A program made the translations under genes and the position numbers. DNA of 64,000 bases from Bilabrum cf. latius (taxonomy: Eukaryota). Of the stretch, positions 37,299 through 59,989 are shown piece after piece. The notes beneath the pieces were generated by a model. It was given only the letters and a program-made list of their open reading frames with translations, was not told where the DNA came from and made no database searches. Every line of letters starts with the position of its first letter. Position 1 is the stretch's first letter. The stretch covers positions 1,054,001 through 1,118,000 of the forward strand of contig OZ237748.1 in NCBI GenBank assembly GCA_965178125.1. The letters run 5' to 3'.

Positions 37299-37838
37299 CC
37301 CACTGAGTCCAGAGTGGCCACCAGCGTGAAATGGTCGTGCTTGTACAAGGTCCTCCAGATCGGCGTGGGACAGTCGACCTGATACACCGCGTCCAGGTGC
37401 GTGTATGCCTCCTGTGAGCCGCGGCTCAAAGCGTCCGCAACGATGTTGTCCTCGCCAGGAATGTGTTTCACGTGAATCTGCACATCTTGCGTTGTCTGCA
37501 GTACGAAGATAGGGCGAAGTAAGGCTGCCATGATGTGGCTCTTGGGTCTGCCGTAGCGTATCAGCTACACGGAAGCATCATTATCACACCACAAACGCAC
37601 CACACGTCCACGCAGGTGCTGTCGCCAATGCGCCAGTGCCAACAAACATGTTGCAAGTTCTGCCGCCGCTACATCCTTCGCCTCTAGGCGATGCGGCCAA
37701 GTGCCGTGGATGCCGGTGTGCGATGTGATGTTTCCGTCCGTGTCGTGGAGAAGTAGCTCGGCGCCGTAGCCTGTCACCGACGCATCAGTGCGAATGATGG
37801 GACAGTCAATGGTGCCCCGCATCGGAAAACTGCGCCCG
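37154..37838 (-). pseudogene. RNase H half of the family-3 polyprotein, separated by the virophage insertion
   Basis: GRSFP, RTDASVTGYGA, AELA, WCDN, HIPGEDNIVADALSR. Confidence 0.88.
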
Positions 37839-38853
37839 GGGGGGGACAACAGGTGGTGGTAGGTACACCAAGCGTTTAGGACGAGGGCTACGCTACGCTC
37901 GCCCCTCCTTTAAAGGCATATTTAGCAACTCAAGTGTTTCCCCTATAAACCTAAATGATTTCACAGGGGGTTCCCCAAGAACCCCTATAGAACCCCTCTA
38001 TGTACCCATTTTCAGATATAAAATTTACTCCTACGAAGTAGGGGTAAATTGAAGAATTCTAATATTTAACCCCCTTATAAACTCTAACAGCAAAGACAGA
38101 GATGTTTTAGTAAAGTAGGAAAAAATGAAGAAATTAACCAAGTGTCCAAAATATCTCTGTGTTTGCTGTAGGAACGGAAGGATGAATTCCCAAGAGACCA
38201 AGAGACCAACCGAGGATTTCCCCAAGAGAACAAGGTATTTTATCAAGAGACCGAGGTATGTTCCCAAGCGACAAACCGATAAACCGACCGATGAACCGAC
38301 CGATGAACCGACCAAGGATTTCCCAAGGATTTCCCAAGGATTTCCCAAGGATTTCCCAAGGATTTCCCAAGGATTTCCCAAGCGACTAAATTGTTCTCCG
38401 AAGCAACCAAACCGATTACCCAAGAGATGATACATTATAAGGAAAACGAAAACGTATTTTAAGTCCCTTTGGAAAAGTCCCCCAAGATGCTCGGGCTTTG
38501 CCCTCCGCTCTTTTGATATCTTTTTCAAAGATTAAAATTGAGAGATTTTACAGGTCAATTTTAAGAGACTTAGAAAGAATAAATATATTTTCCAATTAAA
38601 ATTAAATGTTGTAATTCCTATGATGCCACCATAAAAATTAAAAGGAAAACGAAAACGTATTTTAAGTCCCTTTCGAAAAGTCCCCAAAAAACTTGTCAAT
38701 TTTACAGGTCAATTATAAGAGACTTAGAAAAAATAAATTAAGTTCCCTATTAAAATTAAATGTTGTAATTCCTATGATGCCACCATAAAAATTAAAAGGA
38801 AAATAAAAAACAAATTATAATTGTTTTCCAATTAAAAACACAAAAATTGATTG
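37839..38853 (+). repeat. Left terminal inverted repeat
   Basis: Reverse complement of 54310-55324. Starts G7ACAACAGGTGGTGG and contains (ggatttcccaa)x6. Confidence 0.95.
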
Positions 38854-39092
38854 AAAAATTTTGACAATATAGGATACAAAGAAATATTAAAATTAATTTT
38901 CCAAGATGCTCGGGCTTTGCCCTCCGCTCTTTTGATATCTTTTTCAAAGATTAAAAATAAATGTTGTAATTCCTATGATGCCACCATAAAAATTAAAAGG
39001 AAAATAAAAAACAAATTATAGAATATTAAAATTAATTTTCCAAGGATTTCCCAAGAGATGATAATTTAAGCCATTCTATATCACTATAGTAA

Positions 39093-39206
39093 ATGAACCC
39101 ATTTTTAAAGGAGTTGATGATAGAGCATATTGTCAAGCAAATTAATCCACGTATTTGGAAAAAATTACACGAAAAACTAAAGGAATACAAGAAGCTCGGG
39201 CTTTGA
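39093..39206 (+). CDS. Small 37-aa hypothetical viral protein
   Basis: Follows the CTATAGTAAATG motif; MNPFLKELMIEH...; TGA stop. Confidence 0.4.
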   Translation: MNPFLKELMIEHIVKQINPRIWKKLHEKLKEYKKLGL

Positions 39207-39237
39207 TATAAGTAGAAGACTATACTATAAAGTACTT

Positions 39238-39522
39238 ATGAAGCCACATACCTACGATTTTGAAAAGGTTGTTGAAAATTTTCAATTTAAAGCACCCTCA
39301 AGACGCAAGAATAAGAAGTATGATGTTTTTGACGAAAATGATGAATATATTACATCGTTTGGTGATAGGCGGTATTAGCAATTTTACGATAGAATAGGGT
39401 ATTACAGCCATTTAAATCATTTAGATACGGACCGCCAATTTAGATACTTCAAACGACACGGTATCGAAGTAAAACCAAGAACCCCAAAGTTCTTCTCACA
39501 TTTTTACCTTTGGAGTTCATAA
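39238..39522 (+). CDS. Tlr6F-like protein, 94 aa
   Basis: SRRKNKKYDV...SFGDRRY*QFYD...HLDTDRQFRYFKRH...KFFSHFYLW matches my recollection of the Tlr6F pattern found in PLVs and virophages. Confidence 0.7.
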
Positions 39523-40053
39523 ATGACACGTCAATAAATACACTAATTCATCAGGATTTAATGTATGTTTCTTACAAACCTTATCCACCCACTTTTTATA
39601 CTAATCAGCGTTTTTTCCCCTATTCCAAAGACGAACTATACAATGTCTCCCGCAGGTTGCTATATCCATTCCATCCGCCTAAAACTAATATGGGTTATAG
39701 TCAATCTTATACGGAGAATGATACATTAAATATATTAACTCAGGGTCTTCATAAAAACGTTTCCGCACGCTTTCACTCATTGTGTGCTATTGCCTATCAG
39801 GACGAATTCCATAACTGTCAAAGAAGTATATTGTTTTATTACGCTTAAATAAGCACACCCAGTGTCCAGAATTTATTTCTTCTTGGTATAGAATGATACA
39901 ACAATTACAACGACTAAATAATCCATCAATACTATTGTACTATCCTAATTCTGTATATGGAACGATGTTTACCGACGTAGGAAGAAACCCCTTAATATTT
40001 GGTGGAGTTTGGAGGAGAACACGAATATCACTATCGCTAAGAGCATAATCCAT
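39517..40053 (-). CDS. Capsid-maturation cysteine protease (adenain/Ulp1-like), 178 aa
   Basis: GHWVCL, YFFDSYG and Y*F*ADGMDIATCGRHC; TGA stop. Absent from the ORF track because of TAGs. Confidence 0.9.
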
Positions 40054-40243
40054 AGATTTATTATAGAATGATATATTGGGGGAGATAAAAGCATCTCTTA
40101 ACCACTATTTAAGCGTAGAAGTATTTCTACAAAATCCGTTTTGGAATTTGTGGATAGCATAAAAGACAATCATTCAAAATAAGTTTTCAACAAAAAGACA
40201 AAACACTTTAGAAAAAAAAAAAACATATAGTAAATACACTAAA

Positions 40244-41146
40244 ATGGCTCATTTTTCTTGGAAGGAAACTACAAAATCAACACCCATCGCATATGACACT
40301 CACGGAAAACGTATTTTATACACGGCGGAAAACACAGACAACCAATTTGGAGATGATAGTATGTCATTTTAGGATTTTCAAGTATCATCTCTTACAGGGA
40401 ACAGATTTCCGCAGAGGAAAATGGATTTATTAGCACGACACTTAATCAAACAGGTCGAACCCCTAGACGAAGACATCAAATATTTGTATGAAAAAGCATA
40501 GGAAAAGAAACATAAAGAGATTACATTAAAATAGGGTGAATTCCAATCACTACCAAATCCAAACGGAAGAGAGGTCATTTTTATCACCGCACCATCAGGC
40601 GCGGGTAAGTCTACTTGGGTTTCCAAATATGCTAAGAATTATCATAGAATGTTTCCGAACAGGAGAATTATTTTATTTTCTCGCGTATAGTAGGATAAAG
40701 TCTTAGATGAAGTGAAAGGACTGAAAAGGATTATTTTAAATGAGGAACTGGTGGTGAACCCGATTGATATTCATTAGGAATTAAGGGACGCCTTAGTAAT
40801 CTTGGATGATATTGATACAATCAAAGATAAAAAATTAAGGGAAGCCCTCAATCATTTACAGGATGAAATATTATAGGTTGGAAGACATAGCAATACTTCT
40901 GTATTAATCACAAGTCATTTAAGTACCAACTATAAAAGTACCCGTATTATTCTTGCGGAAAGTACAAAATTCGTTATTTTTCCGTAGTGTTCATCCGCAC
41001 ATTCTCTAAGGTATTTGTTAAAGAATTATATAGGACTTGAGAAACAAGAAATCTCTAAAGTCTTAAAAATGCCTTCCAGGTGGGTCTGTGTCCACAGGAA
41101 TTACCCGAGGTATTTAATTGGAGAAAGGTAGGCTTACCTTATGTAA
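40244..41146 (+). CDS. DNA-packaging ATPase (A32/FtsK-HerA-like), 300 aa
   Basis: Walker A APSGAGKST, Walker B LVILDDID, GRHSNTSVLITSH. About nine in-frame TAG; TAA stop. Confidence 0.92.
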
Positions 41147-41175
41147 TTTTGGTCAAACTTTTTATAAAAGTTTCT

Positions 41176-41412
41176 TTAAATAATATTCTATTCTCGTATA
41201 TACCGACTTGCTTGAGGTAAACTCATACCAGTCTACTACATCACCATTTTTACAAGTTTATTGCGACGTTTCATTTTCTCAGAAACTTTTCGTTTGGGCT
41301 TTAAACCTTTTCCAACTTTAATATGATGGTTTTTAACTCTATTTAAAGCGTCTTGTTCTTTCTATAGCGCGAGTTGTTTGGTTCTCTATATAATCCACTT
41401 ATCAATATCCAT
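41176..41412 (-). CDS. Small basic viral protein, 78 aa
   Basis: MDIDKWII*...RRNKLVKMVM**TGMSLPQASRYIRE*NII-TAA, preceded by TATAGTATAATG. Confidence 0.65.
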
Positions 41413-41477
41413 TATACTATACACAAACACTTTATTTTTTATTTTTTGGTCAAGCTTTTTATAAAAGCTTATAGTAA

Positions 41478-42659
41478 ATGAAAACTGCTAAAGTGAATGC
41501 TCTTATTCAGCAAGCCCTAGAGAGGGAACTTGACAATGCTAAAATGTTAGATTTACAGGCAAGGGACGACGTAGATTTAGAAACAGAATATAGTGATTTT
41601 ATAAGGAAAAGGGCAAAAATTGAACGATTAAAAGAAAGTGGAAGGTATGGAACTCCAGCGTAGAGAAAATAGGCAGACCAAAGCAACGAGGAAATCATAT
41701 CTAAGTCAATATCTGGTATAATGAAAGGTATTATTGAGGGTAAAAATGTAAGTCCAGCAGTGAAAGCATTGAAGGATTTTGTTGGTAATATCAATATGTC
41801 TCCACAAATGAAGCAACAACTAGCCCGTCAATACGTAAATATTGAGAGATTTCAAAGGAAAGGCTACGAAGGACTGCAGAGAGTTCCAGCTGAAGACAGA
41901 AAACAACTCTTAGAATTAGGGAAAGTTATATAGGAGGCATCCGGACAACGAATACCGTAGGGAATGTTGGGAATTGATTAGTAGCCAACATCTTTACAAA
42001 CACCTGCTCGAACAACAAGAAGAAACACGTTTTCCGCTCCAACACAAGTACAGCTTCCAGAAAAGGGTTCGATTGCGTATAAATAGTTATTGGAAAGAGC
42101 CAGAGAAAGAATACAACAAGACAGACCCTTAACTGAAAAACAACGAATAGCGTGGGATTTAGAATAGGGAAAGAACTTCTCACAAAGAACATCACAGGGA
42201 CAGACAAATATGTTTTAGCATTTTCCAGAGGGTTCAAGTAGTAATGCGTCAAAAACATCAAAAGACTTAGATGCCATATTAGCCGCAGCGAGCAATGAAA
42301 GACCACTACCGCAAGGAAGCACTCCGGGGGCGTGGGACCCAGAAACTGGTGAGTACTATGATATGCCGAGTAGGATAGAAATTGAGCAGGGAATTGGAAA
42401 ACGTGCTACTAGACCTGTGTAGCGATTTACGGGGTTTAGTCCGCCCTATGGAATGTAGTAGCCTGATTTAGAAGACCCACCATCACGCGCAATGACTGTA
42501 GAAGAAAGTGGAAAACCAAAAAAGGGGAAAGGATTACGAGGTGGAAAAAGGATTATCTATGATACAGCAATGAATGTAGCCAAGAAAGTAAAAGGAGCCG
42601 ATAAAGATATTCATCATTAGGTTGCTATGGAACTATTACATCTTTTAGGAAAAGATTGA
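41478..42659 (+). CDS. Hypothetical viral protein, 393 aa
   Basis: Open across many TAG to TGA; TATAGTAAATG start context; basic KKGKGLRGGK tail. Confidence 0.75.
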
Positions 42660-42724
42660 CCAAAACCTCTTATTTACATCTTTTGGCAACCTGATAAAAA
42701 TTATTTCTGTGGATATACTATAAA

Positions 42725-43216
42725 ATGTCAGTTTCAAATCTTCTATCTAAGAACAGTCTAGACCTTATGTCTCAAACTATTACGTGTAATGTTGTGAGTA
42801 GCGACGCAATTAAAGTGTCCGCAATTACTAACTCTACGGGAGCAGTCATAGGCAATCCAAGTATTGAATTCAAAGACGGAGAGCCTTATATGGAGTGGGG
42901 TGAAACTGTTCTACGGTTTGGAAAAAACGGAGCGTCTGCTGGTTGTCAGTTCAGTATGAGCGAAGAAGGAGAAAGATGCGATATTTCACTAGTTGGTTCA
43001 TTCAAGACTTCTCAAGAGGGTGTTGTTGGGCTGAGTGAGGTTGCTGGAGCTACATTGGCTGACGCTTCTACCCCTATTAATACGTCAGCAGAGCGAAAGT
43101 TCAAGGGCGCTTTAGTGTATAATGGAAGCGACAACGATGTCTATGTGGCGATTGGCAGTTCTTCTACATCTAGTTGGAAATCCTTAGTGTCAGGTTCACT
43201 TATTACACCATCTTAA
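42725..43216 (+). CDS. Hypothetical viral protein, 163 aa (S/G/T-rich, possibly fibre or attachment protein)
   Basis: Clean ORF directly upstream of the penton. The function is a guess from position and composition. Confidence 0.7.
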   Translation: MSVSNLLSKNSLDLMSQTITCNVVSSDAIKVSAITNSTGAVIGNPSIEFKDGEPYMEWGETVLRFGKNGASAGCQFSMSEEGERCDISLVGSFKTSQEGVVGLSEVAGATLADASTPINTSAERKFKGALVYNGSDNDVYVAIGSSSTSSWKSLVSGSLITPS

Positions 43217-43272
43217 TTATACTTTAGAAAAGTAATCAAACCCACCCCATAATTATAAACGTCTATAGTAAA

Positions 43273-44382
43273 ATGAGTTCTCCAGACCGATTTTACATTA
43301 CCGCAAACATACGAAATAACGAAGATACTTTCCAACCAGCGACCTATAGCGAAACCCGCAAGTAGCCATTATTAGATAAGGATGTTGGTGATTATACGAT
43401 GTCAGTATTCCGGTTTTCCATAAGCACCAATTCAATACCTTTATGGGTTCCACACATAGAAACCGATAAAGTGAAAAATCCATCTTCAAATCCTAATCAA
43501 ACGGTGTATAGAATTAGCATTACAGATGAAAGTGGAGTACAATTATGGACGGAAAGTATTATATGGAGACCCTAGTTAACAGGGGAAAACCAACCATCTT
43601 TTTCCAATCCTATGTAGTTTGTTCCTTATTATTATATGTATTCCGTGTAGCATTTTGTTGATTTATTCAACGAAACCCTATAGAACGCTTTATCAGCGGA
43701 TATTACATCAGTTCCGGTTTTACTATTCAAAGATGGAAAGTTCAGTTTAGTAGCAAACCCCGATTACGACGAGGAAAACTCAGGACAAAAATTTAAATTA
43801 GTGTTGAATGAAGCCCTTAACGAACTGATGACGGGTTTTCCTATGGAACGAATGGATATCCAAGATGACGACTTATACGCCAGTATTCTATTCAAAACCC
43901 TAGGAACCAATGTTTTATTCGATGATGGCTCTTCTGTTGGAAAATATGAACCTTAGGCATACTTCGAGGGAAACCCAACGGGAGACTACAGATTAATGAT
44001 GACCTAGGAACGAGGGAGTTTAGTGTAGTTTTAGATTTTTCGCGGAATAGTTTTCACATCTTCAAGTCTTCCAGTGAGGAGTGAGGCAATATCCTAGAAA
44101 TCCGCCTATGGACAATCCACAAATACAGATTAGAATTCAGGTTCAGGGACCGAGAGTTTATTAGTGGATATGGACTGTGTATTAGATGACACTGAAACAG
44201 TTAATTAGTAGGTTCTTCAATACCAGCCCCATATTCTCCACGAAATTGATTTTTTAGATACACATTCAGTAGATAGGATTTAGTTTAATCTTTATTGGAA
44301 AGATAATTATTCAAATCTAAGACCTCTTTATTTACGCCACGGAAGTGTGAGTGTGAAGTTTTTAATTTAGAAACGGAAGTGA
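43273..44382 (+). CDS. Minor capsid (penton) protein, 369 aa
   Basis: N-terminal YSETRK*PLLD...DYTMSVFRFSISTNSIPLWVPHI and C-terminal LYWKDNY..LRPLYL..GSVSVKFL are virophage penton-like. Adjacent to MCP. Confidence 0.85.
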
Positions 44383-44487
44383 AATTAGTTTTGTATTACT
44401 TTTATGAAGAAACGAGTTTGCGTTCTTTTCTAAAGAACTGAGTGATAGAATTTTATTCGTTGTATATAATATACAAGGAAAACAAAA

Positions 44488-46257
44488 ATGTCATTGAATA
44501 CCTTTGCCCTTCAGCCAGTCAAAGTATCACCCGCAACACTAGATGTACAACCGAAGCCGTATGAAGTTCAAGAAGGTTATGAGAACCGGACTTTCCGTAA
44601 ATATAACCCCTCCGGGTCTGCCGGAAACTACAACAGCGGGGTCAACTGGAATATTAGTATGCCTTCAGGTGTAGGTTTGTGCCGTCGTGCCTATGTCTCG
44701 TGCCGATTTTCTATCACCTTTTCCGTGAATAATCAAACCGCAGGTGGTCTAGCACCCTTTAGACCAGATTACGATGCTCCACGCTCCTATCCACTTAATC
44801 GCTCCATCGCAACATAGACAGTTGGCATTAATAACCTTCGCTATACCCAGAACAACGGCGAACTAATGGACGCTCTGTCCCATTTACTAGATGATGATGT
44901 CCACCGTGTGAATTGCCTTGATAGTGTGTATAGACGCGATAATGTGCCTTCATACGCGATGATGAGTTAGTCTACGAATAACGCTCTTGCTTCGTATGAG
45001 GACGTGCTTTAGGACCAACCAGCCCGAGGAAGTGGATTTTACAATTTGTATCAAATGGATAATACTGATGTACCCGCAGGTCAAACTCAAAATCGTGTTC
45101 TTGTTTTTGAATGCACTGAGGCGGTATTATGTCCACCTTTCCACTACGAAAGTAAATAGGAACAAACGGCTATATACGGAATTCAAACACTCTCCTTAAA
45201 TATTAATTGGTCTCAACTGAGTAGAACCGTGTGGTCTCGTATTCCACAATAGGGCTTAACTGCTACCATTTAGTCGGTAGATGTCCAAGAACCAGTCCTA
45301 TACCTTGAATAGATTACACCTAAAACAGGATTTGTGCTTCCTAAATAGGTCTCGTATGATATTTTTGAGATGACTTCGTATACCCAAAGTCATAGTCCAA
45401 CAATTGCCGCAGGTACTACAGCAACTCTTTACAATAACAATATTAAGCTTAGTAATTCAGTTCCAAGTCGTTTATTTGTGTTTGCCCGTCGCTCACCTAC
45501 AACCCTTTCAGTAGATTAGGGAAACACATTCATGGCAATTGATGGAATTAGTATAGAGATGAATAACCATAGTGGATTACTCGCCGACGCATCGCCACAG
45601 CAGTTATGGGACTTATCCAGAAGCAACGGACTTGAATAGCAATATAATGAATGGGCTATGCGTAAATTCGGGGATAGGGTGCTATCAGGTGGTCTGTTAT
45701 GTATTGACCCCGCCAAGGACTTAAGCTTAGATGTAGATTAGACGAATGGTAGCAACGGTTCTAATCAATTGTCTATAACCCTACGAGTGAAGAATAATGA
45801 TGTTGTGGACTACGATAATGTATAGTGTGTGGTGATTGGATTATACGAAGGAGTATTAAATTTGATTGATGGGTCTAAGTTCGAGTATTAGCAGGGTGTC
45901 ATCTCAAGGGCAGACGTTTTGTCCGCCTCTAAACTACCCGTTGTATATGAAAGTCAATTATCAGGATTACACGGTCGCGGTCTTGGGAAAAAGATTAGAC
46001 ACGCCTTAAAAAAGTTCGCACACAAAACCGCTGATTGGGTAAAGAAAGGCAATCTCAAAAAAGTATTAAAGGATGGTAAGTAGGTATTTGACACCGCTAA
46101 AATGGTGGGTGAAATGGCTGGTATGGGACGCCAAAGGAAACCCCGAAAGACTACCAAGAAAGGCAGGGGTATGACTGCTGCCGGTTTAACTGGGGCTTCT
46201 CTCACCGGTGGTAAATCTCTTTCTCGCAATCAATTACTCGCAATGTTGTAGCAGTGA
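44488..46257 (+). CDS. MCP: Virophage-type major capsid protein, 589 aa
   Basis: Length typical of virophage MCPs. Motifs DAPRSYPLN, TEAVLCPPF, NIKLSNSVPSRLFVFARR, and a Gly/basic C-tail. Open only with TAG as sense; TGA stop. Confidence 0.88.
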
Positions 46258-46312
46258 ATATGAAAAGGGTAAATCGATAAATATTTGTCTTGGTATATAG
46301 TATATCAAAACA

Positions 46313-46930
46313 ATGTCAGTGTCAACTGCTGTAATGGTTGCTGGGACTTTAGCCCCTTTAGCTTATACAGGAAGCAAGTGTCTATATTCTTGGTGGACGA
46401 AAGACGGAACTTAGAAACAGAAATCGTGCGTGGTTGTTCCAAAAGGAAGCGGTAAAACTACTTTATGTCGTTCCCTAGAAGCGGTGGATAAGGATACGCT
46501 AATTATTGATTTAGACGAGTGTGTAAATGCTCAAATTTCAGGACAGGAAAAGCAAAAGATGGAGAAAATGTTGGTTGACGGTGATGAAAGTACCCACCGC
46601 CTCTTTTATTATTCCCAATCAAGATTAGTGTATGAAAAAATTAAAGCGGATTGGCTCACAAAGAAATCCAGGCGTTTAATTGTTATGGTTGGTTCGTTGG
46701 AATTAGCGAAAGATTTATTTAAGGAAAGTTCAATTTTTGTGTGTGTGCCTTCTCACAGTCTTTTTGAGGAAATCCGTGAAGGGAAAAAATCGGGGGACTT
46801 ATTGTCTGTAGAACGCTCAAGAACGAATTTAATCGCTGGATTACATTAGAGTTAGTACTGTGTCTATTCATCCTTTTAGCAACTGGAGGAATTCGTCCGT
46901 AAAACATTTGGTCTTGGTTCTCGTCTTTGA
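46313..46930 (+). CDS. Second P-loop NTPase/kinase-like protein, 205 aa
   Basis: PKGSGKTT followed by LIIDLDE; hydrophobic N-terminus. Confidence 0.7.
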
Positions 46931-46956
46931 GTTTTTTAAATACAAGCCTATACTAA

Positions 46957-48237
46957 ATGGATAGTTTTTATACACTTAGTGGCGGAAAAATGAATTCTGG
47001 TTTTGTTAAGACGTACATTAGTGTCAAAGAACCAAAGAGTAAAACAACAAGGACATGGAAAAGTGAACATCCTTATTCTAAAGAAGCCCTTGAAAAAGCA
47101 ATTAAGTTTGAAGATGGTGTGCGAAGCACCCCCTCTCGGCGCAGTTAGCTGGCGCAACAGCTTAAAGATGGTGTGGGAACAAAAGGAAAACCAAAAAAGA
47201 AATCCTAGAAGAAATCCACACAATCCAACACACTTCATTAGTATTTAAAAGATGGTCCGCGAAGCCAGCTTAAAGATGGTTTGCGAAGCACCCCCTCTCG
47301 GCGCAGTTAGCTGGCGCAACAGCTTAAGGGTGGAGTAGTGTATGGGAATTCAAACGAAGTCCAGAGAACACTACAGCAATACGGGGATAGAACAATTATA
47401 GCTATGAAAGTGATTAGAACCCCCATTAGTGGCGCGATTAATCGGTTGCTTAACTGGATTACCCTTGGAAAAATGAAAAAGTTAAAAAATAAACACGGAT
47501 ATAATGATTTTTTTCACTTAGCCTTAGAGTTGAACCTTGGAGGTGGAAAAAAGATTTATCTTGAGAAGAATGAGAGGGTTAATTTGTCCTCAAGATTTTC
47601 CACCAACAAGAAAACACAAACTATGGAAGTAAATATCAATGGAAAACCTTAGAAAACAGTAAGGGAATTATATGAAACCACTTTACAGAAAATAGGAGAA
47701 TACAATTTTTATTAGTATCGTGCTTTCTCGTTGAATTGTCAAAAGTTCATTTAGGATGTTCTACGCACAAATGGGTTTTTGACACCACCCTTAAACCAAT
47801 TTATTATGTAGGATGTAGAGAGTATTGCTAAGAACGTATCGGGATTTACTAAGAGAGTGGCTAATGCTGCTACTGATGTGGCTGGTTATTTTTCCAAATG
47901 GTTTGGGAGAGGCTTAGATGATTTACCGGAAGATGTAAGAAACGCTTTAAGAAAAAATTAGGAAAAGCATAAGTAGAACACAGAAAGGGATTTTGGACAA
48001 GATTTTAAGGAAGGTTGGGATTTAGCAACTAAAACAGTTGGAAGACCAATTATGAAAGAAATCCATTCGCATACGAATGACCCAGTATCGGGTATGTATC
48101 TGGAAATATTTGGAGGTCAATGTCAGTGTGAAACAAAACGTTCAAGAGTTATGAAAATGGCGTCCATTTTAAGAGGAAAAGGAATATCCAAGAAGACAGC
48201 ACTTAAGTAGGCTTGGAAAATGTTTGCGTATGATTAA
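46957..48237 (+). CDS. 426-aa protein with a putative permuted papain-fold (PPPDE/LRAT-like) domain
   Basis: FFHLAL...YLEKNE...Y*YRAFSLNCQKFI. One frame across TAGs; TAA stop. Confidence 0.65.
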
Positions 48238-48257
48238 TTTATGATTGTGTATAGTAA

Positions 48258-48899
48258 ATGGCGGGTGTTGATGATTATACCGAAGAACAACTACATTTAC
48301 TGGCTAGTTAGCCACATCAGAGTTTGGGGAAAGACGCTAGACAAGCACTAGCAATTTTGAAAGGATTGAGGAAGCACTAGAGTATAGGGGAAAAGTACGC
48401 TAATCGTGTATATGTAAACCCTTAGGAAAGGGAAATGATGGAAATGCTCGCCGAAAAGACCGAACAAGAATTTGATACGCTAGGAATTGACAAAGATAGT
48501 GATGGTGATTATGACGTGGGTATACTAAAATTCTTATCACCATCACTACACGAGCAACACGACACAACACTTGATGATTTTAATTAGGCAATTCATAGAA
48601 AATATGCGTCAGAACGGAGAGATACTATGCGTGAATTTTTTGATGCTAGAGAGAAGGGAAACAGTTAGAAAGAACTATTATCATCGAGATAGGCTAGAGT
48701 AATGCGAATGGGTGGTGAAGTGCCTGATTGGGGCTCGAGCGAAAGAGCGAAGTAGAGTTTTAAACCACAAAAAACTGGAAAAGGGAGGCGCCGTCGGAAA
48801 AACCCAAAAGCAAAACTAGCAATGAAAATCGCTCAGTAGTTAAGAGGTAGAGGATATGGGAAAAGTGATGCTCTAAAAATTGCTTGGTAGAATGTATGA
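48258..48899 (+). CDS. Hypothetical viral protein, 213 aa, basic C-terminus
   Basis: TATAGTAAATG start context; open across TAG to TGA. Confidence 0.7.
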
Positions 48900-48940
48900 C
48901 TTAAATCTAACTCTATAGTATAATACTATAGAATACAAAA

Positions 48941-49213
48941 ATGACACTCAGTCATTCAGAAAGAAAAGAACAGGATAAGCTGTATGCCCGTGAATACTAC
49001 CGGAAAAACAAGGAAAAACTTGGAGAATAGATAAAGTGTTCCTGTGGTGGTGTATATAAGAAGTACAATAAATCACATCATTGTAGAACCAAAAAACACC
49101 TTGATTGGCTTCAAAAAGAGGAAGACACAAAAAGGGAACAAATTAATATTATGGATGAACTTGATAGTTTGCGATAGGAAATTTAGAGACTAAAGGAAAA
49201 GCAGACTATTTAA
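48941..49213 (+). CDS. C2H2 Zn-finger/Zn-ribbon protein, 90 aa
   Basis: YYRKNKEKL..IKCSCGGVYKKYNKSHHCRTKKH followed by a coiled coil. Confidence 0.75.
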
Positions 49214-49269
49214 TTCAATCTTTTCTAAACACTTTTATGCCGTTCCGCCGGTAAACTGCGGTGCTTTGG

Positions 49270-51111
49270 TCAATCTTTTCTAAAAATTTTCTTCTTACTG
49301 TGAATAATTTGACATTCACCTGATTGCTCCAACTTCATACCCCCAAGGTTCGTTGATAACTTTAGAGGTAATTCTTTCTCACTAATGAAACCATCCGTGT
49401 TGACATAGTGAATGTTTTCAAGATATGGCTCAATCATTTTGGACAATTTACTTCGTCCAAGTCCAGTCAGAAAGGGGCCCATTCTTGCGTAGGCTGTTTT
49501 GTAATCGTACTCTTCGTCATATAGTATACCCGATACAAGTCGTCCAGATGCTTTAGGATAGGCGTTCTTTAATTGTCTAAAATTCATACAATCACCATCT
49601 CGGAGTGTTTTTGTGATTGTGTTTTTCTAACATAGAGAACCCCAAATATTATTTAGTATCTCCTTCGCACACTTCAATCCCTATTTTTTATAACCGTACA
49701 ATCGCTCAATCATCGTTTTGAACAGTCCATTTGCCTTCACCCTTGTTGTCTCATCGTAAAGTAAAGCGTTGGCTTCACCGTCTTCAATCAGAGACACCTA
49801 AGCGCCCGTCTCAATCGCTCGGTTAATGTCATATTGGGTATAATAATTGTTTTTTCTTTTTTGTACTAATTTAGAATTGAGATTTTCAATATGTACCCTA
49901 AAAATGCCGTACGGATAGAACCCACTGGATGGTACTTTAAATTGTACGAACTTACCCCTTCTAACCGGAAATGTAAATGTACCCTTCATAATACTTGGAT
50001 AAAATGAGTTAATATCGTACTGGTATGCGTTTTTCAATGTAGTATTCTTGTTTGCCCAATTCAATCCACCACCTGATGCTCTTGAAATCCATAGTGCTTC
50101 AACTTGGTCAATCGGGTCGGCAGGGTAAAGTTTGGAAAACTTACTGAAATACGACTTTACAAATAGGGATGTTCTAAACATAAATCGTGATAAATCCATA
50201 TATCCACCCGTCTCCTTCGCTAATGCCCTTACATTTTTCATCCGTTCTTCGTGTTTTGTTCTTAGTTCTTCCTTGGACTTGACTTCAAAGATGAATTTAT
50301 CCTTGGAAACTGATGTAATGCCTTCTGATTGATACTCACGGTCTCCATCAAATAGTAAATAAGAATTCTCGGATTGATACAAGCGGGTAATTAGCGTACA
50401 CGGTTCTTTAGACGGCGGTGTAAATAATTCTTTCTAACTAATGGGGGGAACATACTTGTAATGCCCATTTGTTAATGATACAGTTAGAAGACGGTCAAAA
50501 TGAGTTTTTCCAGATGTGTATTCAAAGTCGCCCACAACGTTAATACGTATTTCTAGTTCGTCTTCTATCTCTGGTATTCTTCTGTAATCAACGGGGTCAT
50601 CACGCCCAATTTTCAAGAATTCTTTCAGGTCGGACTATGACATTCTTTTAATAGTAGTTTTCCATTTGCCTTTTGCGTTCTTTACATTTACCTTACGACC
50701 AACTGAAAAAGGAAAAGCCTGTTTTATAGCGTTATATAAACAATCGTTATGTTCGTCAGCACCGCCTTCTGGTTCTGGCTTTCTAATAAGCAGTAGTTCA
50801 AAAGAATTCAATTTTCTATATTCGTCGTCATCGTCGTCTTCGTAGCCCGCCCATAAACTATCTTGATTTTCTAAATCATCTGTAGTAATCCAAGTGCTTC
50901 GTGTTCGCCAACCTGTATCTTGGTAATTGATATTCACCTTAAATTTAAAGTCATCAAACGGATTTTCACCACCATCGTCGTAATCACGAATAAATTCCAA
51001 GACATTTTTTACGGTGATAAGGTCCTCGCTCTCAAATCGCATACTCCATATTGGTTTCCCATTAAGACGCAATTTGGTTCTTTGGGGTTCCGTAAAATCG
51101 ATTTCGGGCAT
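49270..51111 (-). CDS. polB: Protein-primed family B DNA polymerase, 613 aa
   Basis: Four ORF pieces in one frame split by TAG. Motifs YDINSFYPS, KEILNNIWG and YVNTDGF. Confidence 0.92.
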
Positions 51112-51130
51112 TCTATAGTATCTATTATAT

Positions 51131-51162
51131 TATAGAATACGATAATTATTCTTAAGGTACGA
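51131..51162 (-). promoter_or_regulatory. Bipartite putative promoter upstream of pPolB
   Basis: TCGTACCTTAAG-N9-CGTATTCTATA. Confidence 0.7.
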
Positions 51163-51168
51163 ACTCAC

Positions 51169-52830
51169 TCACTTCTCAATTTTACAGAGGAATTTGGAAA
51201 GTTTTCCTTTTTTGTTCTTTGGTGGGTTCTCTTTTATCCATTTTTGAATAGCGATGCTATTCTCAACACTCAGCTGTTTCTGGATTTTCTTATGGACTTG
51301 TTCCGTCGGTGTAATCTCCTTTTCTAATTCCAACTATTCAATCGTTTCCTACTGCTATGCGACTTGTTTCTGTAGTTCTCTAATCTACTCTCGAAGAACA
51401 TCTACCTCGGATTTTGCTTTTTCCATCTCAGCAGAATGACGAAGTGCCTAAAATTTAGATTGGAAGCCTTTTAGTAAGTCTGCGTGTTTCACATTAAATT
51501 CTTGTTTTCTCTATTTGTTCATCGTTGAATGAACACCTACCTCTGACAATAGTGTTTTAATCATAGGTGTACCAAGGTTCTTCACTCTACCGTTCAGTTC
51601 CTGCTTTAGATAATTGCGGAATTCCAAGACTGTCATTTTAAAATCTCTGCCTTCGTCCAGCCACTCTTCTTTTAGAATTTTTAAAACCGGATGTGCGCCA
51701 TCAAGAATTCCTTTGTAAAAATTCTTTGATTTTGGTGCGAATTGTCCTGTAAAGTCTGGTGATGTATCATAGATTTCAACCAATAACATATAAAATGCCT
51801 TAGCCACTTCTGGATTTTCTGTAAAACGTTTTAGTGTTGTAAAGTATTCTTTGTCTCCTTTCTTAGATGTATTCACATCCAAAACACAATATCTACGGAT
51901 TTCCTCGGTGATTTTGATTGGACTATCATTCGTATCAATAATTAAATTGAATGTATTCGGACGACTTTCGGATTTGACAAACTTCTCATTACAGGAAAAG
52001 TGTTTTTCCGTAATAAGATTTCTTAGTGTTGCCTACATGGCGTCCCAAATAGTTGGCGAGGCTTTTGGAATTTCATTAAAATTGACTAATAGTTTCCCGT
52101 CCAGAATTGAGTTGAAGGCGTCGGGTTGAAGCATCTTGTGTGTAAGCGTCTATAGTGTGAGGGTATATCCGAGTAGTTTTCTCATAAGGAAGGTAATAAT
52201 CATCGATTTACCAGTTCCTTGTGGAGATTTCAAATATAGTGCTGTACCCAACTTCTTTCCGCCCACAATAACGTGAGCCAACCACTTCATCACAAAATCA
52301 CACTATTCTTTGTCTTCTGAAGTCCACACCTTCTGGATATGTTCGTAAATCATAGTCGCGCCTGCTTTTGCGTCTTCGGTTAAATCCTCTATGTTTCCAC
52401 AGTTTTCCCGTGTAAGTATAGGTGAACCCATAACGTTAATTGTTTGATTGTCGTAATCAACGGTAGGTGAATTGAATTTTCTTACAATCGTAAATACGTC
52501 GGTATTCTCATTTAAGAACCAGTCTCGTGCTGACCAAGTCTTTACTCTTTTGTTGCCCACAATCGCGTAAATACAGTGTCCCCCAATCAGGTAATTTTCA
52601 GTAATATTTTTATTCGTAAGGAACTACCAGACTGGTTTCTGGGGTTCGTCATCACTTATGTTATTCCGATTTAATTCAGATGCTATTAGAAAATACACCC
52701 CGCCACCTTGTTCGTGGGTGCGGTAGAAGTATTGTTTAAGGTATTGAATACATTCCTCTTGTTTTCCGGCATTACATAGGTCCATAAGGCTTTTTGACGA
52801 ATACGCTTTAGTCGGCAGAGTGAATGACAT
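51169..52830 (-). CDS. Superfamily 3 (D5-like) helicase, 553 aa
   Basis: KWLAHVI..KKLGTALYLKSPQGTGKS, FNSILDGKLLVNFNEI, NLIIDTND; coiled-coil tail. Confidence 0.88.
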
Positions 52831-52844
52831 TTTTGTTGTTGTAC

Positions 52845-52876
52845 TATAGAATACGAAAATAATCCTTAAGGTACGA
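52845..52876 (-). promoter_or_regulatory. Bipartite putative promoter upstream of the helicase
   Basis: TCGTACCTTAAG-N9-CGTATTCTATA. Confidence 0.7.
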
Positions 52877-52887
52877 TACGGGGCATC

Positions 52888-53943
52888 TCAATTTTCTATA
52901 TCCCACTCCAAAATTAAATTAGGAGCAATTTCTTGGATTTTATTCTTTGGTTCCCACGTCCAATGTTCTGGTTCTGGAAAATCTTTCCATTCTATTTGAT
53001 ATTCTGTTTCGTTCTCGGATTTTATTTTTTTTGGGAGAAAGATTGTCTGAGCATCTCGGTTATTGTCCTCATTATCAAAGTCGATAATCTGTAATTCCTC
53101 TTTTGGATAAGCCACTAAATCATCCTAATCCACAACATATAAGGGTGGTTGTCTCGGTCTTAATAATACTTTAGTTATCGTTTTGATTTCTGGATTATAG
53201 CGTAAATCTGAAGCACGGAAATTTCCGGATAATTTTTGCTGTAAATTTGTAGCCTTTCTGGGTTCTTCTAATGGTATACGAACTCTTGTACCCTCTTCCA
53301 ATATATTACAAGCGTCTCCTTTACACTACGTAAAGTCGAAGTGTTCTGGGGGTAAAGGTGGTTCTTCTATATACTTTTCTAGTTGATATTCATTATAGTT
53401 TTCAATGATGTTTGGAAGCATATCCACCCATTCTACGCTTTCATTACCTGTATTTAACTCATTAACGTTCTATAGGGTAAATATGGCTTTTCCCAACGTT
53501 TTATTTAGGTTTTCCACTAATGCCTGTTGTCGGTGGCGACCTGCTTTATTTCTTCGTACAAATACATCGGTCTCTTCTAAATATCTTTGTAAAGCGTTAA
53601 ATTCTTTTCCATTATCTATTTCCAAACGGTGCTGCGGTTTCTGGACATTACCACGATTGAAAATCTTTTTTGATGCCTTTAATACTTCGTTCTAACGCTT
53701 GGTTTTGAGCGGTTCAGCATCGGCCTACTTTGTATGTAAATCAATAGCAGTTAATGCGTATTTATAATTATTGTCGTGGGGTAATGATAATAAATCCATT
53801 TGTACCACTTGGTGAGGTTCTGGTACATTTACGTGGGGTCGATTTACTCCTTTGGGTCGTTTTGGTCGTTTCATTAAATTTACAATACGACTGTTGGGAT
53901 AAATGTTTAGGGATTGTAATATTCTTTCAAAGGCGCTACTCAT
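52888..53943 (-). CDS. Retroviral-type (rve) integrase with C-terminal chromodomain, 351 aa
   Basis: QMDLL, YALTAID, IDNGKEF and LVENLNKTL (DDE); EYQIEWKDFPEPEHWTWEP (chromodomain). Confidence 0.92.
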
Positions 53944-54008
53944 TTGCTATATAGTTGTATCATTCTCCTTACTTTTGTAAAGTAGGGAAAATAATTCTTG
54001 GGAAAAAA

Positions 54009-54248
54009 TCATTTGGTTTTGGTACTTTCGTGCCATTCAACTACAATTTGACTTAAATCTTTAGCTTCCTCAAAGTCAGCAAGCAGGTCATCGTCATCAT
54101 CATAATTAATCCAAATAATAGTCTTTGTAAATTCAAGGTACTTTTTGGCCATATCGTATGCTTCTCGTGTTGTAATAAACGGGACTGATTTAAGACATTC
54201 TTTGGTCGCCAAGATGTAATTCTCGAGTTCCTTTTGTGATTTTGCCAT
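54009..54248 (-). CDS. Hypothetical viral protein, 79 aa
   Basis: Clean ORF behind the bipartite upstream motif. Confidence 0.65.
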   Translation of the reverse strand: MAKSQKELENYILATKECLKSVPFITTREAYDMAKKYLEFTKTIIWINYDDDDDLLADFEEAKDLSQIVVEWHESTKTK

Positions 54249-54262
54249 TTATGTGGTTGTAC

Positions 54263-54294
54263 TATAGACTACGTAAGTTATGCTTAAGGTACGA
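54263..54294 (-). promoter_or_regulatory. Bipartite putative promoter upstream of the 79-aa ORF
   Basis: TCGTACCTTAAG-N9-CGTAGTCTATA. Confidence 0.7.
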
Positions 54295-54309
54295 CATTTC
54301 CACTTTAGG

Positions 54310-55324
54310 CAATCAATTTTTGTGTTTTTAATTGGAAAACAATTATAATTTGTTTTTTATTTTCCTTTTAATTTTTATGGTGGCATCATAGGAATTACAA
54401 CATTTAATTTTAATAGGGAACTTAATTTATTTTTTCTAAGTCTCTTATAATTGACCTGTAAAATTGACAAGTTTTTTGGGGACTTTTCGAAAGGGACTTA
54501 AAATACGTTTTCGTTTTCCTTTTAATTTTTATGGTGGCATCATAGGAATTACAACATTTAATTTTAATTGGAAAATATATTTATTCTTTCTAAGTCTCTT
54601 AAAATTGACCTGTAAAATCTCTCAATTTTAATCTTTGAAAAAGATATCAAAAGAGCGGAGGGCAAAGCCCGAGCATCTTGGGGGACTTTTCCAAAGGGAC
54701 TTAAAATACGTTTTCGTTTTCCTTATAATGTATCATCTCTTGGGTAATCGGTTTGGTTGCTTCGGAGAACAATTTAGTCGCTTGGGAAATCCTTGGGAAA
54801 TCCTTGGGAAATCCTTGGGAAATCCTTGGGAAATCCTTGGGAAATCCTTGGTCGGTTCATCGGTCGGTTCATCGGTCGGTTTATCGGTTTGTCGCTTGGG
54901 AACATACCTCGGTCTCTTGATAAAATACCTTGTTCTCTTGGGGAAATCCTCGGTTGGTCTCTTGGTCTCTTGGGAATTCATCCTTCCGTTCCTACAGCAA
55001 ACACAGAGATATTTTGGACACTTGGTTAATTTCTTCATTTTTTCCTACTTTACTAAAACATCTCTGTCTTTGCTGTTAGAGTTTATAAGGGGGTTAAATA
55101 TTAGAATTCTTCAATTTACCCCTACTTCGTAGGAGTAAATTTTATATCTGAAAATGGGTACATAGAGGGGTTCTATAGGGGTTCTTGGGGAACCCCCTGT
55201 GAAATCATTTAGGTTTATAGGGGAAACACTTGAGTTGCTAAATATGCCTTTAAAGGAGGGGCGAGCGTAGCGTAGCCCTCGTCCTAAACGCTTGGTGTAC
55301 CTACCACCACCTGTTGTCCCCCCC
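54310..55324 (-). repeat. Right terminal inverted repeat
   Basis: Reverse complement of 37839-38853. Confidence 0.95.
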
Positions 55325-58300
55325 GCCCGCCTTTGCGCTGGATAGCCACCTGGAATCCCTCGAGGATTTCCCCAACTGTGAAGCCACCCTTGGACACGAA
55401 GGAGGTGGGGACCCACACCTCACCTGGTCGTGACCGGCTGGCCTACTTGTGAAGGGCCCAGCCCTTGGCGTCATACAGGGGACGTAGAGCACCGCGCATA
55501 CCATAAAGTGCGCCCGACAGGAAGGACAACTTGCCGACCAAGGTCTCAAAGGTAGACAGCAGCATCCCCTTCGTCGTGAGTGCCTCGTGCAGTCTGCGCA
55601 GGACGTCGGTGGCCTTGTCCTTAGGGCACCGCACCTCGTGTTTGATCAAGTCGTAGGTGAGGCCCAAGTACTCGAACACCGGGGCTGGGGCCCCTTGCTT
55701 CAATGCTTTCGAGATGCTGACGGGGAAGTTTGTGGAGTCCAGCTGCCCCATGGCTCGAATTGCCCATGCATCGACTTCGTGATCTCCGCCGAGGCAGGCA
55801 AAGTCATCTACAAACACCTCATTTTCGACCTACCAATGGCGGGACTAGTCTTGGGCCGTCTTGACCTGTCCCGTTGTCGTGCTAGCGGCAGGCGGGGTGG
55901 ACGTTGCTGACGAGTTCGCCTGGGGCGCCTGGTCCGTCGTGCTGGATTGGGCGTTGGCGTGCTGCTGCTGCCGGCGTCGTTGCTTCTGCTTGTGTCTCCG
56001 TCCGGGTCGCATGGCCCTGCCAATGGACTGCTCCTCGAGGGCTTGGGCCAAAGCCGAACTGATCGTAGTTGCGAACGCGGGAGATGATGAGCTGCCCATA
56101 GAGAGCCTGAAGTCTTGCACGATGCGCCCGTCGGGCAGCTTGATCAGGTTGTATTGGAGATCCTCCACTGCCACCGGCAGGACCCGAAAGTACGAGGAAA
56201 TGTCGACGACGTATCCGCTGGCACGCTTGGGGCAGGATCGAACTGCTGCGGCTGCCGAGCGCAGCACGTCCATGCTGCTCGTCTGCTGCACAGGCGTGGC
56301 TGCACTGTAGTCGATGGCCTTGTTCAGACCGGTACGCTGGCCGTTCACCTTGAGTGAGGAGTCCTGAAGGAACCGTAGCTTTGTCGAGTCCTTCTTGGGG
56401 ATCACCAGCGGCCGGGCCCGGGCTGTGTCGAAATCTTTGGGTGACACGAAGTCACGCTCGCCAGCCCGCATGGAGCGCCCGATCTCGCAGGTGATCTCCC
56501 ACTTTTCTTCCGGAGACAGCTTACGGTCCTTGTTGTCTAGATCGTGCTCTTTGGGCACCTCGTCCACGATGGCTAGGGGGCAACCATAGTTCAGTGCTGC
56601 CAGTACACGCTCGACTCGTGGGAGGGCTTTGAACTCGGCAAGGGACGGGGCCTTCCTCGGTGTGCGGCCGCCAAACAGAACCTCCCGCCGAGTCCGCAGT
56701 GTTGCAGTCTAGCGAGGCACCTTGTCGAAGTACTTGCGTGGCGTGAATGCCAGCGGGTCTTCGTGAACCTTCAGGTGGATCCGCTCACGGTCCCACGTCG
56801 CAGCTGGAGCCTCCACGAATTCGCCGGGACAGTCTCTGGTACGCTGGTGATCGTCCTTTCGCTGGATGAAGTCCTCTACGGAGGGTGCTGTCGTCCCTGC
56901 CCACTCATGGCTTGGATCCGGAGCTGGATATGCCCAGTCAACGAATGCTGGAGAGATGTCCGTCCTACCTGGCAGCCTCGTGGATGACGCCGTGGGCGGC
57001 CGCTGCGGTCGCTTAGGGCGCGCTAGGGCCACCAGGACTGGGTGAAGCGCGGGCGTTGACGTGACAGGTGGTGTGGAAGCAGCACACGCGTCCGATGTGG
57101 TGGTAGTCTGCGTACGCCCCTGCGGCAGTGTTGGTGTTGGAGTGCTGGGCTGGCTCTGACGTGACGTACCTCGTGGGGGAGGGTCAGGTGAAGGCTCCTT
57201 GGACTTCCTGGTGGAACCCCCGTCCTGCCGGTCCGCACGCTGGTGCTGGCCACCTTGCTGGCCTGCACCGCCACGTCCACGGCCTCGACGGTGTCGACCT
57301 CCGCCACGATCGGTACTGGGCTGGTCGCTGTCGCCCCCACTGCGCCTGGAGCCTCCACTGCCCCCGCCTCCACTGCCCCGGCCTCCACTGCCCCCGCGGG
57401 GGTCGAAGTGACGGGACAGTGCTGCTCGACGGGACGGCGCCTGCATGTCAGCCTGGACTCCCTGTAGCAGTCCGCGCACGAGGCCAGGTTCGCCTGATCT
57501 GCATGCCTCAGTGGCCCACGGATGCAGCAATTGTAGGAGACGCATGCAGTCGCCAGAAGAGCACGAAGGAATCTCATTCCCAACAAGGTCACGAATCTCA
57601 ACGTCACAGCGTTCGCCTGTATGGCGCCAAGCATGGGAGGAGAGCATCTCAAAGGCTGAACTTCCGCGTGGTATCACACACACAGCGGCAAACACCACCT
57701 CTAGTCGGGACGCCGATGCAGATGATGCCCCGGAAGCACTAACCAAACGAAGAAAATCATTGCGAACCTGCCCCAGGGTTTTCCAATCGGGCACTAGTGA
57801 TGCTGGACACGACCACGAGCTGCTGCCCTGCGGCAACCAGGACGGCAAGGACGCCGCCGAATGCACGCAAGCAGCGCGCACGAGCACACAGCCTAAAGCA
57901 AAGGAAATAGCCGAGTAAATAGTGCATAGTAACTCGCTAGATGGCACCTACTTTTCTCGTCCGCCTGCAGCAGACGACTCCGAGTTGGACGCATCGAACT
58001 TCCCAAAACTAGCATTGCTCATCGGCAGAGCTGCATGAAGCCGGCTCGTGAACGAGAAAATAGCCGATGCAATCTTGGCTCTCGTCACGGCCTGACCAAA
58101 CAGAGCACGGGCCAGTTCTGCAGCGAAATCGCGGCCGCTAGCGTCCAAATGAAGCGCGTCAGCCTAGCAAAACCGCGGCATGAACGCGGATTGGCGAAAG
58201 ATCGAGGTCAACGTTGCCAAGAAATCATCAGAAAACCAATTCTGCATTCGAATTGCAGCGATTGAAGGTGCAGAGGCCTCACGCTACAAAATCTCCACTG

Positions 58301-59684: not shown

Positions 59685-59989
59685 GTTAAATGAACGGAGC
59701 AGGAACTTTCTTCAAAAATTACCCAATCTCCGCCCCTCTCCTGAACACAGAGAGGGTATGCGCGTCATCGCAAGCAATCCGTTGGCTTGGTCGCACCTTC
59801 CCGGTCGCAACCGCCATCGGAACCCAACGAGACGTTCACGCGCTCCCACTCTGGCATCAACACCGAACCCCATCCGGCGTTAGGATCATAATAAAAATTC
59901 GCTCAACTGAAAAATCTTTAGATTTTTTAGTTTTCTTCTTAGAAATGGAATATTTAATATTTTTATAGAAATGGAATTTTTAATTTTTC

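Follow-up and report, generated by a model that had tools for sequence, protein, structure and literature searches.

An endogenous virophage predicted to read TAG as glutamine lies within a Ngaro retrotransposon of Bilabrum cf. latius

The window analysed here is a stretch of 64,000 nucleotides from the genome of Bilabrum cf. latius (GenBank assembly GCA_965178125.1, contig OZ237748.1, positions 1,054,001 to 1,118,000 of the forward strand). It contains an intact endogenous virophage, hereafter virophage A, inserted in the reverse transcriptase (RT)-RNaseH gene of a Ngaro, a retrotransposon of the tyrosine recombinase (YR) type. The inserted element occupies positions 37839-55324 and comprises 17,486 bp between the ends of its terminal inverted repeats (TIRs). 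The left TIR (37839-38853, plus strand) begins with a run of 7 G, and the right TIR lies at 54310-55324 (minus strand); the two are exact reverse complements across 1,015 nt, bearing out an identity that an earlier, model-generated reading of the window (the original prediction) had judged by eye. The sequence at the junctions presents the target site duplication (TSD) GCCCG, at 37834-37838 on the left and 55325-55329 on the right (both plus strand), and the GC content is 0.37 in the virophage versus 0.61 in the flanking Ngaro.

The state of the locus before the insertion is preserved in natural uninterrupted Ngaro copies beyond the window, found on contig C14 (loci L031 and L033) of the genome's own contigs (G000). 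Each flank was aligned to them separately, with no artificially joined frame. The left 2,101 nt of flank are 100% identical to both copies, the right flank is 99.7% identical to L031 and 99.4% to L033, and on the uninterrupted copies the two flanks overlap by exactly the 5 bases of the TSD. The L031 copy carries its own 1,919-codon open reading frame (ORF), which reads VAIQRKGGRSFPMRGTIDCP...TDAS through the insertion site. This confirms that the virophage splits the Ngaro RT-RNaseH ORF between RT and RNase H. The original prediction had placed a virophage in this gene, which is upheld by Pfam capsid and penton matches, the Ngaro repeats and the two uninterrupted sister copies; the frame that it rejoined by removing 37839-55324 and one GCCCG is the one that the natural ORF of L031 reads across the site, and the comparison that it proposed with the copy continuing past 64,000 is the alignment just given. 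The motif GRSFP, which it described as conserved, is present in the RT-RNaseH proteins of both Ngaro family 1 and Ngaro family 2.

The insertion looks recent, as had been supposed, since the TIRs are identical and virophage A shows 0 differences to the copy on contig C9 in the three intervals compared. None of the listed contigs from four public runs (contigs only, 25 pieces being unlisted) bridges the left junction with 31 letters on each side; at other insertion sites of this assembly, public contigs do show the same flanks.

The major capsid protein (MCP) of virophage A is encoded at 44488-46257 (plus strand) by a frame with 15 in-frame TAG codons. It is Sputnik-like (PF21915, E 8.2e-25; PF22031, E 2.4e-27): of the two references compared, Sputnik V20 matches at E 2.8e-30 over 467 residues and the mavirus MCP at E 1.1e-5 over 89. 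A near-identical MCP (P0001) is on record from a 19.5-kb contig, already translated with glutamine (Gln) at the TAG positions, and the next relatives share 59%, 45%, and 42% identity; a scan of IMG/VR with the MCP gave four pattern matches, none of them confirmed. The minor capsid (penton) protein is encoded at 43273-44382 (plus strand; PF21507, E 5e-9). The maturation cysteine protease of 177 aa (39517-40053, minus strand) was recognized by homolog alignment, with His63, Asp78, Gln124, and Cys133 each kept in 115-117 of 117 homologs. Among the aligned members 2 of 36 match Peptidase_C48 and 2 of 36 match Peptidase_C5; the query itself has no Pfam match, and against PDB it returned only spurious WD40 matches when searched singly and nothing significant as a profile. 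A P-loop ATPase of 300 aa (40244-41146, plus strand), with generic AAA matches only, all under the cut-offs, is probably the packaging ATPase, judging by its location within the morphogenesis block.

The genes for replication and integration lie on the minus strand. They code for a protein-primed DNA polymerase B (pPolB; 49270-51111; PF03175, E 3.2e-5, 23.5 bits, just under the 25.8 cut-off), a primase-helicase-like P-loop protein (51169-52830; DUF5906, E 3.3e-15) and an rve integrase with a C-terminal chromodomain (52888-54036; rve E 1.7e-9, Chromo E 6.7e-6). The chromodomain scores above the Pfam cut-off, its match begins at profile position 10 of 53, and among solved structures HP1 and CBX7 come closest to it (best E 5.9e-4 for the HP1/CBX matches). 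It keeps the W and F/Y of the 'WKxF/YxxxxxTWEP' core, residues that presumably take part in the methyl-lysine cage. As in its class generally, expression of virophage A probably depends on a co-infecting giant virus. The motif TATAGTA, a pattern picked after looking, occurs no more than 45 nt upstream of 9 of the 16 virophage ORFs (39238-54248) versus 2% of random 45-mers; it is promoter-like and gives a hint, but only a hint, of giant-virus dependence.

The criteria for Maveriviricetes of Roux et al. (2023), as given in the accessible part of that work, are a virophage-type MCP, a penton, a maturation protease, an FtsK/HerA-family ATPase, a double-stranded DNA genome of 15-45 kb and giant-virus dependence. 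The inserted element has the MCP, the penton, the cysteine protease and the genome size, and by these criteria is a virophage. It combines a Sputnik-type capsid with a pPolB-helicase-integrase module of the mavirus/polinton type. The rve integrase with chromodomain, the pPolB just under its cut-off, the TIRs and the short TSD are those of Maviroviridae/EMALE elements, whereas the capsid is not closest to mavirus. Since the capsid is far nearer Sputnik V20, the virophage is not filed here as an EMALE, though its replication and integration module works like one.

Virophage A is tiled by ORFs if TAG is read as a sense codon, with 17 frames of at least 150 aa under genetic code table 15 and 7 under table 1. 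Other codes were rejected: tables 1, 4, 10, 22, and 25 leave almost no ORFs in the element, and tables 6, 29, and 30 overrun real stops. Tables 15 and 16 yield identical frames; the reading of TAG as leucine (Leu, table 16) was ruled out by the residues in homolog columns, by the exchanges seen between copies and by the cognate tRNA, which has a short variable arm. In the 16 virophage ORFs, which end at TGA (10) or TAA (6), TAG makes up 112 of 277 Gln-class codons. Gln124 of the protease is TAG-coded, and its column holds Gln in 115 of 117 homologs; at the TAG positions of the MCP, Gln is the commonest partner (7/15) in the 59%-identical homolog. Changes of TAG codons among five other copies of the virophage lead to CAG or CAA in 22 of 28 cases, and no new TAA or TGA appears in the 1,486-3,781 codons compared per copy. 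The host uses the codon likewise: a 400-kb sample of its DNA has 107 frames of at least 450 codons with 510 TAG, some inside poly-Gln runs. A nuclear tRNA with the CTA anticodon (G000:C23:907607-907679; L042:1501-1573) has a cloverleaf fold, a short variable arm and a D-arm like that of the genome's tRNA-Gln. A host HSP70 is at odds with this, its only TAG codon standing opposite Leu in 3 of 3 paralogs. As judged from these sequences, host nuclear genes, Ngaros, virophage A and a second virophage of the genome (virophage B) are predicted to read TAG as Gln, with TAA and TGA remaining stops. Another contig, C111 (L041, L068), has clustered tRNAs, one of them with the TCA anticodon, and is probably mitochondrial with TGA read as Trp.

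The interrupted retrotransposon, of Ngaro family 3, runs on the minus strand and has the repeat order A1-[ORFs]-B1A2B2 that is the Ngaro signature. Self-BLAST located the 5' repeat A1 at 59713-59892 and the 3' split direct repeats at 35738-36199 (B2 35738-35867, A2 35894-36073, B1 36070-36199). The 5' part of the gag-RT ORF, defined by comparison with the sister copy, comprises 1,453 codons (55325-59684) and is open to the junction; the 3' part (36434-37838), 100% identical to the sisters, bears the RNase H domain (RVT_3, E 5e-6). A 445-codon frame (36240-37577) encodes the YR (Phage_integrase E 1.5e-4, under the curated cut-off). The RT was identified indirectly, by 26% identity over 391 aa to the RT of family 2 (E 2.6e-25), which itself matches RVT_1 under the cut-off.

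The uninterrupted sister Ngaro starts head to head with the interrupted one (59984-64000, plus strand) and ends about 2.6 kb beyond the window. Together they form a 4-kb inverted repeat (55878-59894 / 59984-64000); a fold-back artefact was ruled out by 10 substitutions. The 5' ORF part differs from the sister by these 10 substitutions in 4,360 nt, 8 of them non-synonymous. Given the open 1,453-codon frame and the few differences to the sister, the interrupted copy was probably intact before the insertion. Genome-wide, the YR of family 3 gives 21 near-full matches at 95% or more, besides fragments (about 21-25 loci), and the loss of one of some 20 near-identical copies is unlikely to matter to the family. 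The 3' terminus was located in 20 of the 23 family 3 loci examined, and all 20 flanks have a GC content of 0.22-0.42, a value below 0.42 being found in only 12 of 800 windows of the 400-kb host sample; 8 of the 20 match virophage A or B by BLAST. Solo Ngaro repeat remnants occur in viral elements at L032:5845-6049, L119:5774-5938, and L129:480-644. Within the window, 21210-21470 is an exact inverted copy of the A repeat of a family 2 Ngaro (26638-26898, 33099-33359), and it is followed by a 650-codon WW-domain frame with the same first seven residues as the first frame of family 2.

The DNA around the two Ngaros belongs to a third, AT-rich virus-like element, element C. The 3' end of the interrupted Ngaro adjoins 233 bp starting with a hairpin palindrome, the left end of element C (35504-35737, GC 0.31), in which the palindrome (35504-35544), detected as an inverted self-match, is followed by subterminal AT-rich DNA; a 90% copy of this end is located at G000:C1:1850693. 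The 89-bp spacer between the head-to-head Ngaros (59895-59983, GC 0.19) resembles the same terminus, with 94% identity over 64 bp to 35609-35672. Past the sister Ngaro, AT-rich DNA codes for an rve-chromodomain integrase and a PriCT-2/origin-binding helicase (L031:7650-10000; L032:1-8710). Element C also contains a 322-aa ORF with tyrosine-recombinase-like motifs seen by eye (no Pfam match) and two ORFs similar to each other, which we take to be GIY-YIG nucleases. None of the 84 Gln codons in its five main ORFs is TAG, which suggests that it came from a host with the standard code. What is left of element C showed no capsid gene. Since the search made found no second full copy, it is by inference that the element is taken to continue across the two Ngaros. 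The nesting would thus be three-layered, with the virophage in a Ngaro and the Ngaro in virus-like element C. The original prediction had described it as the reverse of the direction known from Cafeteria. Virophage A does lie in a Ngaro; that account is incomplete, as the Ngaro itself lies in a virus-like element and its family occurs almost only in AT-rich DNA, and the usual Cafeteria direction, Ngaro into virus, dominates in this genome also.

A third Ngaro copy (L032:8711 to L033:5377-6270) has the helicase gene of element C on one side and a fragment of the virophage A TIR on the other. This suggests that two Ngaro copies recombined and the intervening DNA was lost, which would explain the single TIR end at C14:1139270.

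A TIR search of the own genome found 36 ends at 96% identity or more (of 41 matches), a lower bound, which pair into 17 elements and 2 single ends. Taking the terminal G-run as 6-8 long, a 5-bp TSD is present in all 17 paired copies (15 by script; C41a and C11 by eye), and the target sites have no common sequence. Two of the 18 sites other than the one described above are in family-1 Ngaros (C16 and the single end C14:1139270), both within GC-rich host DNA, and three are in virophage B (C12, C4, C30), itself present in about 20 copies. Three more break long host ORFs, coding for a DEAH helicase, a histidine kinase and a Patched/SSD protein; the first two ORFs are in phase across the site, and the open frames of the third reach both junctions. 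Several further insertion flanks carry nearby repeats. Comparison of public runs X4 and X6 with window positions 37200-38300 revealed TIR ends joined to flanks that differ from those of all 36 G000 ends, a hint that the samples are polymorphic for insertions. The flank of the C11 copy (L027:2161-3465) holds a 435-codon frame with no Pfam match at E 0.001, which presumably codes for a piggyBac-like transposase.

On C12 (G000:C12:297151-314493; L015/L016) and C4 (G000:C4:1242361-1259606; L019/L020), two haplotypes of virophage A occupy the same spot in the virophage B capsid gene, in opposite orientation and with TSDs, GGTTT and GTTTC, that are offset by 1 bp. A single origin of the two insertions is ruled out by the differing haplotype, orientation and TSD. 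The reverse case is found on C22 (G000:C22:646388-690250; L129-L132), where virophage B lies inside a copy of virophage A, and Ngaros occur inside both virophages.

Nesting of a virophage in a Ngaro, which the original prediction had set against the known direction, and chromodomain steering are both already in the study of Cafeteria burkhardae by Hackl et al. (2021; PMC8547959): one EMALE03 is located inside Ngaro4, and steering of integration by the CHROMO domain is raised. Of the 29 EMALE sites in that study, 18 are near repeats and 15 in host genes, with no sequence specificity. The two systems have much in common. In both, the endogenous virophages are AT-rich and have TIRs, short TSDs and an rve integrase that bears CHROMO; the Ngaros show the repeat order A1-[ORFs]-B1A2B2 and prefer virophage DNA (91% for Cafeteria type 1); and there are adjacent double Ngaro insertions, solo repeats, and insertions in host genes and near repeats. 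Unlike in the Cafeteria EMALEs, the capsid here is much nearer Sputnik V20 than mavirus and TAG is apparently read as Gln; unlike in the Cafeteria Ngaros, with ORF1 and ORF2, the gag-like region and RT-RNaseH form one 1,919-codon ORF, and the interrupted Ngaro is from a virus-homing family and itself inside a virus-like element. In Halocafeteria seosinensis (Haro et al. 2026, bioRxiv 10.64898/2026.07.28.741278), according to the available part of the preprint, 9 virophages likewise lie within other viral elements, transposon-rich loci also hold insertions, viral sequences are called hotspots for further insertions, and some subtypes have palindromic termini; that genome, in contrast, is without Ngaros (MULE and LINE instead), and the main text, as far as available, never mentions 'genetic code'. 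Combined chromo and rve domains are reported in more than one third of 358 complete mavirus-related elements in the accessible text of a pPolB survey (PMC13215967).

Integrated DNA viruses in the non-standard code of their host are shared with Streblomastix strix (Bellas et al. 2023, PMC10120064), where, in the parts of the paper at hand, both TAA and TAG are Gln and the MCPs fall in the paper's Metamonada group; in Bilabrum it is only TAG, and the MCP is of virophage type. Reassignment of UAG alone to Gln, with TAA kept as stop, is described in the accessible text of McGowan et al. (2024, PMC11687900) for one fornicate and three ciliates, Iotanema spirale, Hartmannula sinica, Trochilia petrani, and Protocruzia tuzeti; the cognate CTA tRNA, found here, is given there as undetected in H. 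sinica and T. petrani. No report of a recoded virophage proper was found in the literature searched, the coverage of which excludes most subscription papers.

How virophage A came to lie in a Ngaro may be explained without any targeting of particular elements, by accumulation in tolerated islands together with local hot spots, the virophage-in-Ngaro arrangement being a by-product of Ngaro homing; on this explanation, the likeliest of those weighed here, our judgement is evenly divided. The virophage's own rve integrase would have inserted it through a 5-bp staggered cut, separating the RT of one Ngaro copy from its RNase H. The site would not have been selected for being a Ngaro, as the integrase appears to have no fixed target sequence and lands in host genes also. 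Insertions would pile up in virophage/Ngaro islands because they are tolerated there in a gene-dense genome, and some local preference, as at the site hit twice, may add to this. Ngaro family 3 would home to AT-rich viral DNA and make the islands rich in Ngaro, so that the virophage sometimes hits one. Cafeteria and Halocafeteria present a like pattern. A co-infecting giant virus would have to function in a host that reads TAG as Gln.

The frequencies bearing on this explanation were estimated from a background sample of 40 fixed 10-kb stretches (400 kb) away from contig ends, which may undercount mobile DNA. Ngaros and viral DNA make up an estimated 2-3.5% of raw background. Long ORFs cover 69-78% of the sample, and if coding DNA is largely forbidden, so that the tolerated-space background is 10-15%, the probability of at least 5 of 18 sites in mobile elements is 0.03-0.12. 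The enrichment of insertions in mobile elements is real, and in a genome with 69-78% long ORFs selection could explain much of the excess. Several points weigh against accumulation in tolerated islands. At the raw background the same probability is only 2e-5 to 3e-4; the same-site hits at C12 and C4 are not predicted by near-random insertion; genic insertions evidently survive, so that more than selection may be needed; 17 copies of virophage A have kept the chromodomain; and the background sample is small and the copy counts are lower bounds.

Alternatively, the chromodomain might bind methylated histone H3 on the silenced chromatin of transposons and proviruses, steer integration there and so knock out Ngaros and rival virophages, a possibility that we hold to be doubtful. 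The idea of a chromodomain-steered integrase is said to go back to Gao and colleagues in 2008, as named by Hackl and co-workers. It agrees with an HP1/CBX7-like domain that scores above the cut-off and keeps its core W and F/Y, with the 5 of 18 other sites in mobile elements, including two in family-1 Ngaros surrounded by GC-rich host DNA, and with the repeats on several further flanks. On the other hand, 3 of 18 sites break long host ORFs, the Pfam match starts only at position 10 of the profile, histone binding is a prediction from sequence, and in Cafeteria an EMALE integrase with CHROMO goes together with 15 of 29 sites in host genes. The targeting of transposon clusters put forward in the original prediction thus keeps its 5 of 18 sites in Ngaros or virophage B, and is weakened by the sites in host ORFs and by what selection could explain. 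A search of the own genome for Pre-SET gave no match, and its control also matched nowhere. A further multi-copy chromodomain family, with 15 near-identical matches in G000 (e.g., C14:300477, C2:96480), is probably the integrase of another element.

An extended form of targeting, which we consider unlikely, is a reciprocal network, in which a virophage locked to a TAG=Gln host by the TAG-coded Gln of an essential catalytic site has an integrase that homes to resident mobile elements, with a preferred site in the capsid gene of its rival, and a Ngaro family homes only to viral DNA. If true, there would also have to be a giant virus, so far undescribed, that is adapted to this code, and element C, free of TAG, would have come recently from a host with the standard code.

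Co-replication seems to us quite unlikely. Virophages, related elements and Ngaros would come together as naked DNA while a giant virus infects the cell and insert into one another, and the composites would then enter the chromosome. The mutual nesting of A in B (C12, C4, C30), of B in A (C22) and of Ngaros in both is what it would produce, as are the Ngaro in the terminus of element C and the confinement of family 3 to AT-rich DNA. It is weakened by the 13 of 18 other virophage A copies outside viral and Ngaro coding DNA, by the two copies in family-1 Ngaros embedded in host DNA, and by the 19 sites, among which no composite occurs at more than one locus, C12 and C4 differing in haplotype, orientation and TSD. 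It is highly improbable that the assembly falsely joined two multi-copy repeats (found at about 19 and 21-25 loci) in a region with a 4-kb inverted repeat, given the exact 5-bp TSD, which on both sides agrees with the empty site of the sister copies, the recurrence of this TSD rule at other paired copies, the 10 substitutions between the repeat arms and the public contigs reproducing flanks of other insertion sites.

Two observations concern other DNA. Window positions 12300-17959 form a tandem array of 21 copies of a 268-bp unit, with 95-97% identity and a strong strand skew. The assembly also holds two very different types of 18S rRNA (87% mean column identity), one in a tandem array on C12 (L072) and one as a single copy on the small contig C95 (L071), the latter possibly from another organism.

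Overall, nesting of this kind was already known, and what is new is a virophage predicted to read TAG as Gln together with the cognate host tRNA, a doubly hit site and a TAG-free neighbour, as well as the joining of a Sputnik-type capsid to a mavirus-like module in a virophage paired with a virus-homing Ngaro. Under this code the virophage would be untranslatable in standard-code hosts and its helper giant virus constrained, and since standard gene callers would take it for a pseudogene, elements of this sort may be undercounted. The association of Ngaros and virophages known from Cafeteria is repeated here independently with a virophage of a different capsid type. The 19 recent insertion sites with exact TSDs, the roughly 20 copies of virophage B and the virus-homing Ngaro family form a natural test set, large enough to address the question whether integration is steered by virophage chromodomains, which the literature found on it does no more than raise.

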